From a virus, in IMG/VR virus record IMGVR_UViG_3300005264_000064, positions 38,938 to 102,937 of that record: DNA of 64,000 nucleotides; one strand, given 5' to 3'. Below, piece after piece: positions 33,594 to 40,315 of this stretch. Position numbers and translations under genes: made by a program. A model generated the notes under the pieces. It was not told the DNA's origin and searched no databases. It saw nothing but the letters and a program-made list of their open reading frames with translations. Each line of letters starts with the position of its first letter. Position 1 is the stretch's first letter.

Positions 33594-34510
33594 GAGCAGA
33601 TACTTTGCCGTGGTCATTAACCACAGTGTTATGTGTATCTGCTCCATCAATTGACTGCTTGGCATACTAACGGTGCCATCGCCTGCACATACTGAGTTTA
33701 GAGACATCGCTAAGTGCGTTGGTCTTGTGAACTACTGCGGAATCGAACCACAACCTTCGCCGCGTTACGTTGCTCTCCATGAGCTAATAGTTCATATAAA
33801 AATCTCCCAGCTAATCAGGCTGGGCTAGTTCGCTGGATGTACAGACACCAGTCTCGACTATCGGTTTCAACAGTGTAGCTTCACCTTTATAGCTACCAAG
33901 GTAACAGCTGCATGACCCGGGGCTGTTGATAGGGAGCATTTCCGTAATGCTAGAGGCACATCAATTAGATGCGAGTTTGGAGACTGATTAAGACTCCTAT
34001 GAGCACACTTACTTTTGTATCATACTTATCTCGACTTGAGCGAGTTTCGGTGTGCTCATAGGAGTGTTATGTTGGTTCCCATTCAATAGATGAGGTGCGG
34101 GTAAAAGCGTCCAGGTAGTTAGACTGGACTGGCTCGCAGGTTCTTTAGTGGACCTGTCGGCAGCGTTGGCGTTTCAAACTGCTGGTACTGTCCTCGACCA
34201 GTGGAGGTACAGAACGTTGAAGACTGCCTGTAGAAACTACTTACTCAAGGCGTAAGTGGGCACATGGAGGGACTACCTCCGAGGAACCTGCTGTGTGGCG
34301 TACAGGTTCCTCGGAAGGAGTGGTGCCCGATTTGATGTCGTAGCCTAGGCGGTACTACGTCTGTTGATAACCGTGATGTGAATTCACGGCATACACTTCC
34401 TCGACCAGTTGGAATCGAACCAACCTTGGCTGCCTGGAGGTCACCAGTCCTCTCGTGGCCTACTTGAAATGTACTTTTACCGGATGGAAGGAACCCCTTT
34501 AGAGGGCACC
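33594..34510 (-). ncRNA. ORF-free, hairpin-dense putative ncRNA region
   Basis: Perfect IRs 33594-33603/33635-33644, 33993-34008/34050-34065 and 34278-34290/34303-34315, plus two tRNA-like T-arms. Confidence 0.55.
33728..33794 (-). ncRNA. tRNA-like element lacking a normal anticodon arm
   Basis: Acceptor GAACTAT/GTAGTTC, D-arm TAGCTC-ATGGA-GAGC, T-arm TGTGG-TTCGATT-CCGCA; anticodon arm degenerate. Confidence 0.6.
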
Positions 34511-34722: not shown

Positions 34723-36363
34723 TTATAGTTGGTTGCGAAGTCTGGCTCTGATGTCTTCTAGTGACGTTTCATAGAAAGTTAAACCTCCGTTATAGAACAT
34801 TGTCTGGAGTGCATTAACTGCTGATTGCTCCAGTTCTGGTGAGACTTGGTCTTCGAGAGTTAATTGTCCTGCGTCGTCGTGTACACACAATAGACCTTTC
34901 GCTGACTTCTTAGTACCCGAATCGGTGATGGGGTCTTTAAAGATTTCGCGTGGTTCGCCGTCTACTATTCCGTACGTTGCTTTCATTGCGAAACCGAACG
35001 TGTCTCTAGTGTTGTACTGGTAGCTGTATGAGCCTATACCGAATACGACGTTGTCTGAAGCGAAGCCTTGTTGTTCTAGGCGTGATAGGATCTCCTCTTG
35101 GCGGGCTAACGTTATTGAATCGCCATAGATTAACCCGATGCGTGGGTTTAGGGTTTTATAGCCTTTGTCGTTGACTGTACCGCCGAAGGTATTCCATAGT
35201 AGTTGAATTGCTCCTAAGTCTTTAGGAGTAGGTGTATGCTTACGTGCTCTGTTATTCACATCGCTTAGGTAGTATTGGCCAGTTTTACTGTTGAGGTAAG
35301 GAACTTCTATCATGTGTTCCCCGGTGTGTCTATACCCAGTGTACAATGCTTGGTTTTCAGTTAATAAATCCGCTACTATTGCTGTCCCGCAGATGATGTC
35401 GACGGGGTCTCCGCTGTCTGGTCTGATTACGACTTTGGCGTTGCCTAGTGCGTCTGGCTTACGGTCTAAGATGTCTTGTTTGAGTGCTGGCAGGTAGTCA
35501 GTTAGGACTTTCCAGAAGTCCCAAGTGTCTGATACTATCGAGATAATGCCTGATGGGTACAACTCTGTTATGAGACGTTTGAATGTGGCGATTTCAGCGT
35601 CTTTTGTTGAAAGAGCCATTACACTGTGCTCCGTTGCTGGTACACTACAGCCAACTAGCTCTTTTGAAGAATCTGCGTTGTAGAAGTCTTCCGCTCCGTC
35701 AATGGCCCTGATTGTATCAGTACCTACGAACGAAGTTAGGTGACCGATCGACGCTTTGTAACCGTCTTCTCTGTTAGAGAGACCGCGTGCTGAGAAGTCA
35801 TGTCCCTGGAATGGGATAAACTCTTTTGACGCTCCTGTCAGGTCTGCGTATTTATGAAACGTACGTAAGTACTCAAAAGCAATAGTTGCTGTTGTCATCG
35901 GCTTCCAGAGTTCTGTGGATAGAACTGTTTCCAGGTAGTTTGTTAACCAGAAGAAGTCTGGGTGCGTATTTGTTATAGTAAGGACAGGTACCTTGATTGG
36001 GCAACGTGTGCCTTCGGGTAGTGCCTTAATGTGGATAGGCAGGTAGCCTAATTCATGTAAGGCCTTAATGTGGTCTGTTGATACAGCACCCTCGCCGAGA
36101 GAGGTATCCATACGGCGTTTGTACTTCATTAGAACCTTCGTCAGTTTCTTGTTGAAGAAATTCTTTTGAAATTCGTCAATTAGGAAGTCTTTGATGAATA
36201 GCTGAATGCCGAATACAACTACCTTGTCGTCGTAATACTTGCTGCCGTTGAACAGACGAGCTGAACGTGGTGTAAAGTTACTATAGATTTGAGTAGTGCC
36301 TTCTGGGTACATCTTGTGATGAGACGTCTTGTAGAAGTCGGTGCAGTTGATAGGGTTTTTCAC
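34723..36363 (-). CDS. nadV: nicotinamide phosphoribosyltransferase-family protein
   Basis: TDFYKTSH, HDFSARG, SVPATEHSV, SIVSDTWD, IRPDSGDP, IYGDSI, KKSAKG. Confidence 0.92.
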   Translation of the reverse strand: MKNPINCTDFYKTSHHKMYPEGTTQIYSNFTPRSARLFNGSKYYDDKVVVFGIQLFIKDFLIDEFQKNFFNKKLTKVLMKYKRRMDTSLGEGAVSTDHIKALHELGYLPIHIKALPEGTRCPIKVPVLTITNTHPDFFWLTNYLETVLSTELWKPMTTATIAFEYLRTFHKYADLTGASKEFIPFQGHDFSARGLSNREDGYKASIGHLTSFVGTDTIRAIDGAEDFYNADSSKELVGCSVPATEHSVMALSTKDAEIATFKRLITELYPSGIISIVSDTWDFWKVLTDYLPALKQDILDRKPDALGNAKVVIRPDSGDPVDIICGTAIVADLLTENQALYTGYRHTGEHMIEVPYLNSKTGQYYLSDVNNRARKHTPTPKDLGAIQLLWNTFGGTVNDKGYKTLNPRIGLIYGDSITLARQEEILSRLEQQGFASDNVVFGIGSYSYQYNTRDTFGFAMKATYGIVDGEPREIFKDPITDSGTKKSAKGLLCVHDDAGQLTLEDQVSPELEQSAVNALQTMFYNGGLTFYETSLEDIRARLRNQL

Positions 36364-37173: not shown

Positions 37174-39459
37174 TTAGAATATGATCTTAGCGAGTTGCTC
37201 GCCATTTGTTAGAACGTTGAGTGTCCCGTTGTTGTCTGCTGAGATGACAGTGTCAGCTGACATTTTGTTCGTAGTAATTTGTGACTTCTTGATTGACTTA
37301 CGAAGTACGTAGTCTACTGACAGACGTTGTGGTAAGTTAGCCAGTAAATGCTTGGTGTTATCAAATGAGGATATGACAGTGTTATGAAGAGAACTATTAT
37401 CTGAGATAGGTTTAGTAATAAATTTACACTTACCAGCCTTAACGTCGATGTATGAACCTACATAAGCCTTTGCTGGGTCATTTAGTTTGATAGCGTATGC
37501 TTGGCGTGCTAAGTCAATTGTTAGACTATTACTTGCCATGACTCTTTTTGATCTTGGAATGAAGTCTATGAACAAATGTGTATCGTATTTGTCTAAAGTT
37601 GCGCCACTGTACATTGTTAATGAGTTGATGATAGTATCTATCTCTGCTGATTGTGCCAGCTTGTAGTCTATGTCGATGAACTCTGCGGAGTATGTCGTAG
37701 TTGAGCATGACGTGATGTCTCCTGAGGATACTGCGAGTAGTTGTGGTTTCCCGGTGGCCTTGTTCCCTACCTGTAGCTGCGGTGCGCCGTAGTAGCATTG
37801 ATACACTTGTTCACCACGTAGGAGGGATGTGTTGAGGTCGATGTCACACGAGCCGTTTCCAGCGTCTCTCCATACTACACCTAGACGTATGAAATCTGTG
37901 TCTACTGGGATAGTTATTGATGAACCTGGAGGTAGGAAATTGCCTGAGACTTGATTATCTGTAGACTCTGCTCCTGAGTATTGAATAGCGATATCTGCTA
38001 GCGATGGATCGATGTAGACTTTACCAAGAGATTTGTTCTGTTCTTTCTTGACTGACTTAATGTAGCTCTTTAAGGTCTTAAGGGCTGACTTAGCCATCGT
38101 TGTGTCAATAGCTGGTATTGGTGTTGTGTAGCGAACTGTGACACCTTGTACCTCACGAGTTGTAATTGGTGATTGATGTACTGGGTTCTTAATTTCTTCG
38201 ATTAACTGCCAAGCTGTTTTAATAGCTGGTGTTGTCTTTGTTAGAAAATCTGAAAAATCGTACTTTAAGAATGCAGTAATATCAGATTTAGCATACTTAG
38301 TTTTGTCTAACAGCAAATCAGTTGTATTTGGAGTTGTCTTACTTGCCAGTGGAGTACCCTTTGGGTATTTCAACAAGTTAACAAGGTTACGTAGTACAAG
38401 TCCTGGACGTTCCTGCAGTATTTCAACAGCTTTAGCGAAGTCTCCTGCTTGCATTGCTGCTGAGTAGCGGCTGTTGAATGTCCAACTACGGTCATTGCTA
38501 TATAGTTTGTCAGTGAGTACTTTGAGGTTCGGGTACCTCTTTAGTTCACGAGAAGCTGATGTCCAGTGGCAATGATGTAGGCAACGTTTCCAAAATTGCT
38601 CGTTTGTTAGGAGTTGTTCTACGATGTAGTCAGTATTCTCACAGTCGTTGAAATACTGAAGTATCACTTTCTTCATTCTCGTTGGTAAGTGGAATTTGAA
38701 GGATTTTAACATACTATTAGTTATTTGTCCTGAATAGTCAATTGCATTATCACCTTGTTGGAAGTTAGTGAGAATGAGCCTCATTAACATTGTTGGTGAC
38801 TTAATATGAGGTGTATTACCTAAGTTGTGCATAAGGTTCATGTAGAATGCTTCAGTTGCCTGTACCTTAAAATCTGTTGATGCAAGTTTAATGATGTGCT
38901 CTGGAGCTGCCTTTAGCAACTGCTTTTGTTGAAGGCGGAGAGGTACTGGAGATGACAAGATTGATTGTAGGTACACAACAGCATCTGCTGTATTTAGCAA
39001 TGTAACTTCCTTAGTAGTCGATGGTAGTTTTACGGCTGTTGTAAAATCATAGTCATTTGCATAGTTTGCCAATACTTTTACAGCAGTTTCTGGGAAATTT
39101 GCCGCGTAAAGGTCTTGCCATCCATAAGTAACAGCGTATTGTGCTAAGATTACTGCTGTCTCTTCAAGAGTATACGTTTCTAACTTAGTAGTGCTTGCAA
39201 ACGAATCTCTGAGCTTATACGCACCAACTTGTGCAGAATTTGCAACAGTTGGTATTTGCTCTAGAGCTATAGCTAGGAAATCTCTGTTTGCTGAAAACAA
39301 TATTTCTGGATTTGTTAGATGCAGGTTTAACTTTGACAGTTTTAGTAAAACTGCAGTAATAAGCTCTCTAGTAGTGTAGTCTGACTGGGTTGGCTTGCTG
39401 TCGATATAAATGTTGCTGGTAGTTCCAAACAGTAATGTTTGAAATTGTGTTGCTTTCAT
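37174..39459 (-). CDS. TROVE/ROT-like helical domain fused to a TerD-like C-terminal domain
   Basis: RPGLVLRNLVNLL (compare Ro60 MPxxALLRNL); C-terminal W...DIDL...SSGDITS...AEFIDID TerD-like motif. Confidence 0.6.
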   Translation of the reverse strand: MKATQFQTLLFGTTSNIYIDSKPTQSDYTTRELITAVLLKLSKLNLHLTNPEILFSANRDFLAIALEQIPTVANSAQVGAYKLRDSFASTTKLETYTLEETAVILAQYAVTYGWQDLYAANFPETAVKVLANYANDYDFTTAVKLPSTTKEVTLLNTADAVVYLQSILSSPVPLRLQQKQLLKAAPEHIIKLASTDFKVQATEAFYMNLMHNLGNTPHIKSPTMLMRLILTNFQQGDNAIDYSGQITNSMLKSFKFHLPTRMKKVILQYFNDCENTDYIVEQLLTNEQFWKRCLHHCHWTSASRELKRYPNLKVLTDKLYSNDRSWTFNSRYSAAMQAGDFAKAVEILQERPGLVLRNLVNLLKYPKGTPLASKTTPNTTDLLLDKTKYAKSDITAFLKYDFSDFLTKTTPAIKTAWQLIEEIKNPVHQSPITTREVQGVTVRYTTPIPAIDTTMAKSALKTLKSYIKSVKKEQNKSLGKVYIDPSLADIAIQYSGAESTDNQVSGNFLPPGSSITIPVDTDFIRLGVVWRDAGNGSCDIDLNTSLLRGEQVYQCYYGAPQLQVGNKATGKPQLLAVSSGDITSCSTTTYSAEFIDIDYKLAQSAEIDTIINSLTMYSGATLDKYDTHLFIDFIPRSKRVMASNSLTIDLARQAYAIKLNDPAKAYVGSYIDVKAGKCKFITKPISDNSSLHNTVISSFDNTKHLLANLPQRLSVDYVLRKSIKKSQITTNKMSADTVISADNNGTLNVLTNGEQLAKIIF

Positions 39460-39476
39460 TATGTTTCCTTTGGGTT

Positions 39477-39563
39477 TAGTGCTTAAATCAACGCAGTGTA
39501 TGTAGTTAGTAGTTTAATCCAAAATAAGTAACTAAAAACAGGACTGCGCTGGTTTAAGAACTA
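39477..39563 (-). ncRNA. Y-RNA-like structured repeat, copy 1
   Basis: About 21-bp terminal stem enclosing AGTCCT...GTTACTTA...AACTAC...ATACACT. Confidence 0.7.
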
Positions 39564-39567
39564 GAAG

Positions 39568-39724
39568 TACTCATTTCAAAGACACACAGTTACTACAGCC
39601 AGAGGCTAGCATAGTGCGTAGGTGTTGCTGCATAAGGTACCAGGGAGCTACCCAGGGTTCTAGTGAATTTAAAATTACTGTAAAACCTGTAATCTACAAC
39701 AACTGTGTGCCTATGAAATGAGTA
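39568..39724 (-). ncRNA. stem-enclosed structured element
   Basis: 24-nt IR 39568-39591/39701-39724 around about 110 nt. Confidence 0.5.
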
Positions 39725-39890
39725 ATAGGTATAATTTCCAGAGTTATACTGGATTCTTATACAATGACAGGCGGTTCTTGTACGCTATCAGTCATAGTGT
39801 AAAGGGGCTCTTTAGTGACAGTGTTGACATAACTGTCAGAGTGAAAGGCGGTGTAATCTTCGATCGAAGACTACGAGAGTTTAAGTGATT

Positions 39891-39986
39891 TACACTTAAC
39901 AAGACGTAGTGTATGTGTGATGTAGTTATTGCAAATTAAAAGTTTGTTAAGTAACATCGATACAGGACTACGCCTTGTTAAGTGTA
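39891..39986 (-). ncRNA. Y-RNA-like structured repeat, copy 2
   Basis: 20-bp terminal stem and the same four conserved boxes. Confidence 0.7.
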
Positions 39987-40057
39987 GGATATAAGCGACT
40001 TTATAACTGTGGCTATTGACTATCAGGGCAACTAAGTATAGAGTACAGGTAGTTGAG

Positions 40058-40139
40058 CTCGGCAAGTGTATAGGTGTAGTAGTTGTTGGTTAGCCCGAAG
40101 GCTATAATATTTAAGTAACTACACGAAGGACTTGCCGAG
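40058..40139 (-). ncRNA. Y-RNA-like structured repeat, copy 3
   Basis: CTCGGCAAGT/ACTTGCCGAG stem, same boxes, apical cUUCGg hairpin. Confidence 0.7.
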
Positions 40140-40315
40140 TTTACTACATTTCGTAAGTTGTTGTAGAGATCTTCTGACCTTTGCTGTTTTTAGAGATTGT
40201 GACTACTGTCTTCATCCCAACTGATGTCTTACGTGCACTACCATTGCCCCAAGTGGAGTTTCTGTTTTTCTTGCATGTGTGTAGAGCTTTGCGCTCCCCT
40301 ACTTTTAGTGCCATA

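Follow-up and report, generated by a model that had tools for sequence, protein, structure and literature searches.

The stretch of DNA analysed here (the window) comprises 64,000 nucleotides (nt) of a viral genome, positions 38,938 to 102,937 of the IMG/VR record IMGVR_UViG_3300005264_000064. On its minus strand lies an open reading frame (ORF) for a protein of 761 amino acids (aa), and three hairpin-shaped units on the same strand are found within 700 nt upstream of it (Table 1). These units, which we call handle RNAs, and their probable association with the 761-aa protein are the subject of this report.

Three hairpin-shaped RNA units upstream of the 761-aa gene

We observed that all three units carried the same boxes in the same order: AGUCCU, 6-8 nt, GUUACUUA, a variable loop, AACUAC, one nucleotide, and AUACACU. 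The closing stems showed no sequence kinship when the units were aligned. In unit 1, a long closing stem leads to the AGUCCU/AUACACU internal loop, a helix 2 of UUAGU/ACUAA, and the GUUACUUA box, the end of the unit being 18 nt ahead of the start codon of the 761-aa gene. Unit 2 has a 20-bp closing stem, GAUGU/ACAUC as helix 2 of the handle, and a tip that resembles an anticodon-arm hairpin. Unit 3 has a 10-bp closing stem, GUGUAGU/ACUACAC as helix 2, and a c(UUCG)g tetraloop on its tip hairpin.

Table 1. Features of the locus (positions in the window). Fold z scores are against dinucleotide shuffles; R1 is a covariance model built on 15 handle units.
Feature	Position	Strand	Evidence
Gene of the 761-aa protein, presumed RNA partner	37174-39459	-	ORF
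N-terminal, mostly helical domain (aa 1-500)	37960-39459	-	AlphaFold2 (AF2) model, PDB fold search
TerD-fold beta-sandwich domain (aa ~505-700)	37360-37947	-	fold search, Foldseek
Handle RNA unit 1	39477-39563	-	fold -26.4 kcal/mol, z -5.4; R1 match 39485-39555, 60.5 bits
Handle RNA unit 2	39891-39986	-	fold -33.2 kcal/mol, z -7.6; R1 match 39898-39979, 81.3 bits
Handle RNA unit 3	40058-40139	-	fold -29.5 kcal/mol, z -6.5; R1 match 40055-40142, 62.3 bits
Tip of unit 2	39932-39946	-	4-bp stem CAAA/UUUG, 7-nt loop CUUUUAA
Candidate structured RNA between units 1 and 2	39575-39722	-	z -2.3
tRNA-shaped element	33728-33793	-	Rfam tRNA, 34.2 bits (cut-off 29)
Second, T-arm-like element	34403-34460	-	17.4 bits
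Nicotinamide phosphoribosyltransferase (NAMPT) gene	34723-36363	-	

The boxes were clearly enriched in the window. The 5' pattern AGTCCT-N4-12-GTTAC was observed four times against 0.37 expected, and the 3' pattern AACTAC-N1-12-ATACACT three times against 0.08 expected, all three within the units. An Rfam search of the window at E<=10 returned only noise (e.g. mir-449, 22.7 bits; cut-off 60.4).

We further examined the handle across the family. Its closing stem is free in sequence except for the invariant A-U, G-C and U-A pairs at its end (AGU with ACU). Next comes an internal loop that is asymmetric, its 5' strand being CC(U) and its 3' strand (A)UAC. The second helix, of 5-10 bp, covaries, and its conservation is limited to the last two pairs. 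The junction G(U/C)UACU is the most conserved element, and beyond it lies the variable tip. The 5' box itself occurs as AGUCCU, AGUCA or AGUGU. When 15 units were placed on a structure given by hand, 88.6% of the cells could pair. With 28 units the figure was 88.5%, as against 29-43% when the 3' partners were slid by 1-3 columns; the covariation score was 0.737 against at most 0.154 in the slid controls, and 19 of the 21 pairs had double-sided changes. The units are an RNA family whose structure is shown by covariation.

G-U and U-G pairs were frequent at several of the covarying positions. Since these would become A-C mismatches on the opposite strand, the RNA strand is the gene strand. A sequence-only reading of this DNA had described three minus-strand units with ordered boxes in unrelated stems, and had taken them for minus-strand RNA because of their G-U pairs and a cUUCGg loop. 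The units were indeed found where that reading had placed them, and the strand agrees with the family covariation and with the loop of unit 3. We infer that each of the three units encodes a small structured RNA of about 70-95 nt, transcribed on the gene strand, with discrete processed RNAs as the probable products.

Within the 330 nt that separate units 1 and 2 lies a further candidate structured RNA, with a closing stem of 12-13 bp (AGGCACACAGUU with AACUGUGUGUCU) around about 120 nt. Both halves of the stem and parts of the interior are kept in the closest relative (L020). The element has no handle and no Rfam match.

The handle RNAs are linked to the protein gene across phages

The protein has 16 close relatives in a large protein collection, and homologous genes were recovered on IMG/VR and JGI metagenome contigs. 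On the complete 102,937-bp virus record, R1 matched at exactly three places, all at this gene. Among 15 other metagenomic contigs, 11 had R1 matches beside the homologous gene (L001, L020, L021, L022, L024, L025, L027, L028/L036, L029, L030 and L032), always on the gene strand, either at a distance of up to about 700 nt on the upstream side of the gene or close to its downstream end, at protein identities of 27-62%. This bears out the expectation that a covariance model would find the motif beside homologues, and it did so down to 27% identity. Three more of the 15 had a YrlA-like unit or a weak unit, or were near-duplicates: L031 carries a handle RNA of the YrlA-like kind (described below) beside the gene, and L037 a weak unit of 14.9 bits. 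In L042 the gene looks broken. With the YrlA-like ones included, handle RNAs adjoin homologues in at least 13 other contigs. The R1 score of unit 2 was the highest among all sources.

Between the loci we found no conserved neighbouring protein gene, save one ORF in the closest relative. As the flanking genes are not conserved, the RNAs and the gene travel as a unit, and the genomic linkage of handle RNAs to this protein family is strict. The NAMPT gene downstream does not belong to the conserved cassette.

The DNA of the window showed no similarity to any of 50,697 phage records, and scans of genome contigs (alignment A2; protein P0131) found no relative. The exact handle pattern had one true locus in IMG/VR, on contig L001, in a scan that says little on handles occurring without the protein; three further exact matches lacked flanking stems and were taken as chance. 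R1 gave no match on the cultured-phage loci or on the Ro60 locus of mycobacteriophage Bxz1. The handle consensus is clade-specific: the Ruegeria phage RpAliso has a handle of its own, GCGCAUG..CAUCCUUCUA, which is present four times. A linkage that persists although the handle changes from clade to clade is what protein-RNA co-evolution would be expected to give.

The 761-aa protein has a predicted Ro60-shaped N-terminal domain and a TerD-fold end

Pfam gave no match on the 761-aa protein (TROVE, vWA, TerD and RING were all absent), and PHROGs placed it in phrog_33734, of unknown function (E 1.5e-13). The family is large: an exhaustive profile search at E<=1e-3 recovered 1593 cluster representatives (50% identity), many of them about 700 aa long and matching both halves of the query, and the members from cultured phages that we checked were all annotated as hypothetical or 'cytoplasmic protein'.

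The AlphaFold model of the whole protein had a predicted local distance difference test score (pLDDT) of 78.6. The AF2 model of residues 1-500, made from a 58-sequence alignment, had a pLDDT of 91.3 and a predicted template-modelling score of 0.76. In the whole-protein model, the C-terminal domain folds as TerD (Z 12-17; 3ibz at Z 15.1, 2qz7 at 13.9 and 2kxt at 12.3), and Foldseek agreed for this domain at E 1.4e-5. One family member (P0078) also matched the Pfam TerD family PF02342 at 4.5e-11. The TerD-like end that had been suspected from the sequence is thus present in the model. A C-terminal vWA domain with a metal-ion-dependent adhesion site (PF25045) was not matched; the TerD fold takes its place.

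When the N-terminal domain was compared with 48,161 PDB chains, the best three matches were all Ro60: that of phage phiLo (9l5y_B, Z 6.6 over 256 aa, root-mean-square deviation 4.3), Deinococcus Rsr (2nvo, Z 6.3 over 270 aa) and Xenopus Ro60 (1yvp, Z 6.0 over 253 aa). The next match had Z 5.2 over 59 aa, and no match other than Ro60 aligned more than 131 residues. Residues ~156-500 of the model superpose on the TROVE ring of Ro60, and the whole-protein model gave the same Ro60 ranking. In the predicted structure, Ro60 is the best fold match of the N-terminal domain.

Sequence methods gave a different picture. The sole stretch that aligned with Ro60 (RK.IL.W... against LR.AV.WY...VKYRQ) had an E value of 0.12, and sequence homology to TROVE is rejected at the present sensitivity. 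The 'Ro60-like LRNL motif' of the sequence-only reading exists as the string LVLRNL; it has no statistical support as a sign of Ro60 homology. A search of the PDB by sequence profile found nothing relevant.

Sister RNAs carry a YrlA-like tRNA mimic

We observed that the first handle RNA of L001 has an insert of 100 nt at its tip, in which a T-arm is followed by a loop-capped stem of 7 bp and then by a D-arm. The same permuted tRNA mimic defines the bacterial Y RNA YrlA (Chen et al. 2014, PMC4201824), and the Rfam YrlA model (RF02553) matched this RNA at 37.1 bits (E 2.9e-6). It also matched handle RNAs of L027 (48.3 bits), L031 (40.1), L029 (38.7), L022 (33.2), L021 (33.1 and 30.8) and L024 (31.5), and RNAs beside more distant family members in L013 (34.6), RpAliso (42.3 and 34.7) and the Rhodobacter phage RcXuper (40.7). 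The tRNA-like domain, comprising T-arm, capped acceptor-like stem and D-arm, is present in L001, L021 (two copies), L022, L024, L027, L029, L031 and L013. YrlA has the motif YUAY at the start of its V loop (PMC4201824), and the conserved UUAC of the handle fits this motif.

In RpAliso and RcXuper, the YrlA matches lie upstream of the gene, in a gap of about 1.8 kb without annotation. This gap also houses a permuted transfer-messenger RNA (tmRNA), at 129.5 bits in RpAliso (L051, 1102-1323) and 108 bits in RcXuper (L049, 1303-1605). Directly 3' of the gene in both phages is a tRNA nucleotidyltransferase, annotated as of the CCA-adding type (L051, 4551-5552; L049, 5002-5991). In many relatives the cassette is in or near tRNA/tmRNA clusters, and the units are interspersed with tRNA genes.

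Some further observations were made around these cassettes. Permuted tmRNA matches just upstream of the cassette in L021 (1212-1452, 40.8 bits) and L022 (27-215, 35.4 bits) were sub-threshold, and in Xanthomonas phage XacN1 a 'nucleotidyltransferase' (L048, 742-1605) lies just upstream of the family member.

The tip of unit 2 resembles an anticodon arm

The 7-nt loop of the unit 2 tip, CUUUUAA, matches in all seven positions the anticodon loop that a tRNA-Lys(UUU) gene of L021 encodes. The tip is kept in six relatives, and the RNAalifold consensus of the seven orthologous units is again a 4-bp stem with a 7-nt loop. The loop is CUGUUAA in L022, the same as the loop of the window's own tRNA-Asn; CUGAUAA in L024, where it is accompanied by a compensatory change in the stem; and CUUUAAA in L029. 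Orthologues of unit 2 carry Asn and Ile anticodon loops, and the loops differ only at the three 'anticodon' positions, which a constant C-U precedes and a constant A-A follows. From its sequence, the tip of unit 2 may be an anticodon-arm look-alike with the exact tRNA-Lys(UUU) loop, and the evidence for this is suggestive. The tip of unit 1 is a short loop with UGGAU, which recurs in L001, L021 and L022. The tRNA genes of the window are 22 kb from the units.

In L021, the tRNA-Lys(UUU) gene (2738-2811, by ARAGORN and Rfam) is immediately upstream of a handle RNA (2850-2932) with the CUUUUAA loop.

A probable particle with interchangeable RNAs that display tRNA parts

We consider it fairly probable that the 761-aa protein and its interchangeable handle RNAs make up a Ro60/Y-RNA-like particle that displays parts of tRNA. 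The protein would bind the common handle of the RNAs encoded directly upstream of it, and each RNA would bring a different tip as an exchangeable module, so that one protein would serve several RNAs, as in the plan of Ro60. The tips would present tRNA parts, namely the YrlA-type elbow in relatives and the anticodon-arm look-alike in unit 2. Since the tips are pieces of tRNA and the cassette lies near tRNA genes, tmRNA and a CCA-adding enzyme, a tRNA-centred role is expected, and such a job of the particle appears likely. The tips might serve as adaptors through which tRNA-recognising enzymes reach the protein, much as PNPase is tethered to Rsr by a Y RNA (PMC4201824, PMC12135203), or as decoys that titrate away tRNA-targeting defence nucleases. 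Candidates would be anticodon nucleases of the host and enzymes of tRNA repair, tRNA modification or CCA addition.

The sequence-only reading had proposed a phage ribonucleoprotein with several interchangeable RNA subunits, and the analysis supports it overall. Its label 'Y-RNA-like' holds for the sister RNAs of relatives, which match RF02553; the three RNAs of the window have no Rfam match. Its proposal that the structure be checked gave the Ro60 ranking, at Z scores of only 6.0-6.6.

A number of results weigh against a Ro60/Y-RNA-like particle. Z scores of 6.0-6.6 are in a range where helical repeats may match by chance. TROVE (PF05731, cut-off 23 bits) gave no match on the protein at E<=1, on the six-frame translation of the genome at E<=10, or in 58 family members at E<=10, while the positive control, Bxz1 gp220, scored 170.5 bits. 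In hhalign, the family alignment A4 against a TROVE alignment (A5, seeded from Bxz1 gp220 and of low diversity, 55-100% identity) gave a probability of 0.5%. As the Z scores are modest and sequence methods find no TROVE, we call the protein Ro60-shaped, and not a Ro60 homologue. On the RNA side, the YrlA matches of the relatives (30.8-48.3 bits) are all below the gathering cut-off of 69 bits, so that none is a formal member of YrlA, yet they recur in one genomic context. Units 1-3 of the window have no tRNA-like elbow and no YrlA match at E<=10. The bacterial GNCGAA(N)G motif, which at the 5' side of YrlA is thought to contact Rsr (PMC4201824), is not in the handle and is replaced by AGUCCU, AGUCA or AGUGU. 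The anticodon-like hairpin has four A-U/C-G pairs, a folding energy of 0 kcal/mol and no predicted fold in isolation, and one compensatory change backs it; as it is so weak in isolation, the likeness is suggestive, not proven. The putative physical binding between the protein and the RNAs, finally, is suggested only by their co-occurrence.

Other explanations of the units have to be weighed against these. The units might be cis-acting elements of the gene's own transcript, such as autoregulatory operator hairpins in a 5' leader, or processing or stability signals. This would fit the window, where all of them are on the gene strand and directly upstream, the last one ending just before the start codon, and where a promoter and terminator scan around the units gave counts at or near shuffle level, with no separate signal standing out. 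It is unlikely, however: in L021 and L022 units are also found downstream of the stop codon, units are interspersed with tRNA genes in relatives, a locus has from 1 to 6 copies, and the tips are kept between distant phages, with full tRNA-like domains among them that a simple operator would not need. The RNAs might also be real and tRNA-related, for example decoys or regulators of a tRNA island, and act without the 761-aa protein, the adjacency reflecting shared timing or a mobile cassette. The position of the cassette in or near tRNA/tmRNA clusters would agree with this, and the protein has no sequence-detectable RNA-binding domain. We give this explanation a low probability, since the linkage persists although the handle differs by clade (as with the RpAliso handle), the RNAs stay with the gene in the window although the tRNA genes are far away, the neighbouring genes are not conserved, and Ro60 provides the best fold matches.

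Signals at the level of DNA or transcription are very improbable. Hairpin promoters of the N4 type, terminators, or a miniature repeat or mobile element come to mind, as each unit is a long inverted repeat and DNA hairpins are used by the virion RNA polymerase of N4. However, the G-U pairs seen where positions covary are compatible with a single strand; the conserved boxes lie inside the units and are asymmetric, and the units measure 70-95 nt, unlike short hairpins of 5-7 bp; no T-runs follow the units; the genome has three copies only, all at this gene; and sister units contain tRNA-like domains. The strand-specific covariation and the copy number led us to reject the hairpin promoter, terminator and miniature inverted-repeat element readings.

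Returning to the Ro60/Y-RNA-like particle, a bolder form of it can be put forward only tentatively, and we regard it as rather doubtful. The particle, with its mimics of tRNA parts, might trap, sense or redirect host tRNA-targeting defence nucleases or tRNA-processing enzymes, with the anticodon swapped between phages according to the defence encountered. The modules would be the elbow in some RNAs and the loops of Lys-UUU here and of Asn-GUU and Ile-GAU in relatives. This would amount to a programmable, RNA-guided counter-defence with no sequence kinship to Ro60.

To our knowledge, Ro60 is the one protein with which Y RNAs have been associated up to now. In the present family, the Y-RNA plan of a stem handle and an exchangeable module, the YrlA mimic included, appears coupled to a protein without a sequence link to Ro60. 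The family is large, and its cultured carriers RpAliso and RcXuper have tractable hosts. If the tips truly imitate specific anticodon loops, this would give a new view of how phages handle tRNA-targeting immunity, and the particle may inform on the general purpose of Ro60-type particles.

Other features near the cassette

Downstream of the NAMPT gene is a non-coding island with two elements. One is tRNA-shaped and above the Rfam tRNA cut-off, yet it was not called by ARAGORN; the other is T-arm-like. R1 found no handle on the island, which places it outside the handle RNA family. The NAMPT gene itself is two genes downstream of the 761-aa gene, and in the Lactobacillus phage LpeD a nicotinamide mononucleotide transporter (L050, 1070-1816) is directly upstream of the family member. 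NAD-salvage genes are thus near the cassette in two unrelated phages, possibly by coincidence; they are not conserved in the metagenomic relatives.

Comparison with known systems

The C-terminal 200 residues share their beta-sandwich with the TerD-family tellurite-resistance and Ca-binding proteins (PF02342; 3ibz, 2kxt), and the conserved SSGD...E..DID residues recall the acidic metal-binding motifs of TerD. Unlike in those proteins, the TerD domain is here fused to a helical domain of 500 residues, and the neighbourhood has no ter operon genes. Among curated families, only the MXAN_6230/SCO0854 RING-domain family (NCBIfam NF041916) shows sequence similarity to the window protein. It matched the window protein at 61 bits (E 6.6e-17) in the TerD region only, against a cut-off of 600 bits, and more distant family members at 316-415 bits over profile positions ~385-757. 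An Atlas structural search also listed this family (template-modelling score 0.62 by query). It differs in its RING domain, which is absent from the phage protein, and a literature search on it found no function or RNA partner.

Phage tRNAs are known to act against tRNA-targeting defences: the tRNA-Lys of T5 counters AriB of PARIS, and tRNA-Lys(UUU) is a known target of such defence nucleases (PMC11464382, PMC12409363). Unit 2 shows the exact tRNA-Lys(UUU) loop, and its orthologues the Asn and Ile loops. However, unit 2 is no tRNA and has no acceptor end; the loop sits on a Y-RNA-like handle.

The closest parallel is with Ro60 and its Y RNAs, above all YrlA and YrlB of bacteria and phages. Phage examples are already known, such as the Ro60 of Thermus phage phiLo with Yrl1 and Yrl2 (PMC12135203; see also PMC4201824). 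A survey of jumbo phages lists TROVE proteins and stand-alone TerD separately (PMC7824862), and our literature search found no paper in which YrlA-like RNAs are connected with a non-TROVE protein fused to TerD. The differences are considerable. Bxz1 gp220 scores 170 and 183 bits with the TROVE and vWA_Ro60 Pfam models, whereas the 761-aa protein matches neither, has TerD where Ro60 has vWA, and has about 155 extra N-terminal residues. Compared with Y RNA, the handle has a further lower stem and another consensus, without GNCGAA, and the RNAs of the window are minimal in comparison with YrlA, lacking the tRNA elbow, while the scores of the relatives stay below the gathering cut-off. On the other hand, the arrangement is alike, since Ro60 (Rsr)/Y RNA systems likewise have one to several same-strand small RNAs next to a single protein gene. 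The 5' box AGUCCU has GUCC in common with GGUCCGA, the contact of vertebrate Ro60 (quoted in PMC4201824). The sister RNAs in relatives share with YrlA the same permuted tRNA mimic and a YUAY-type box, and Y RNAs and handle RNAs alike consist of a long terminal stem, a conserved region with a bulge or internal loop, and a variable module.

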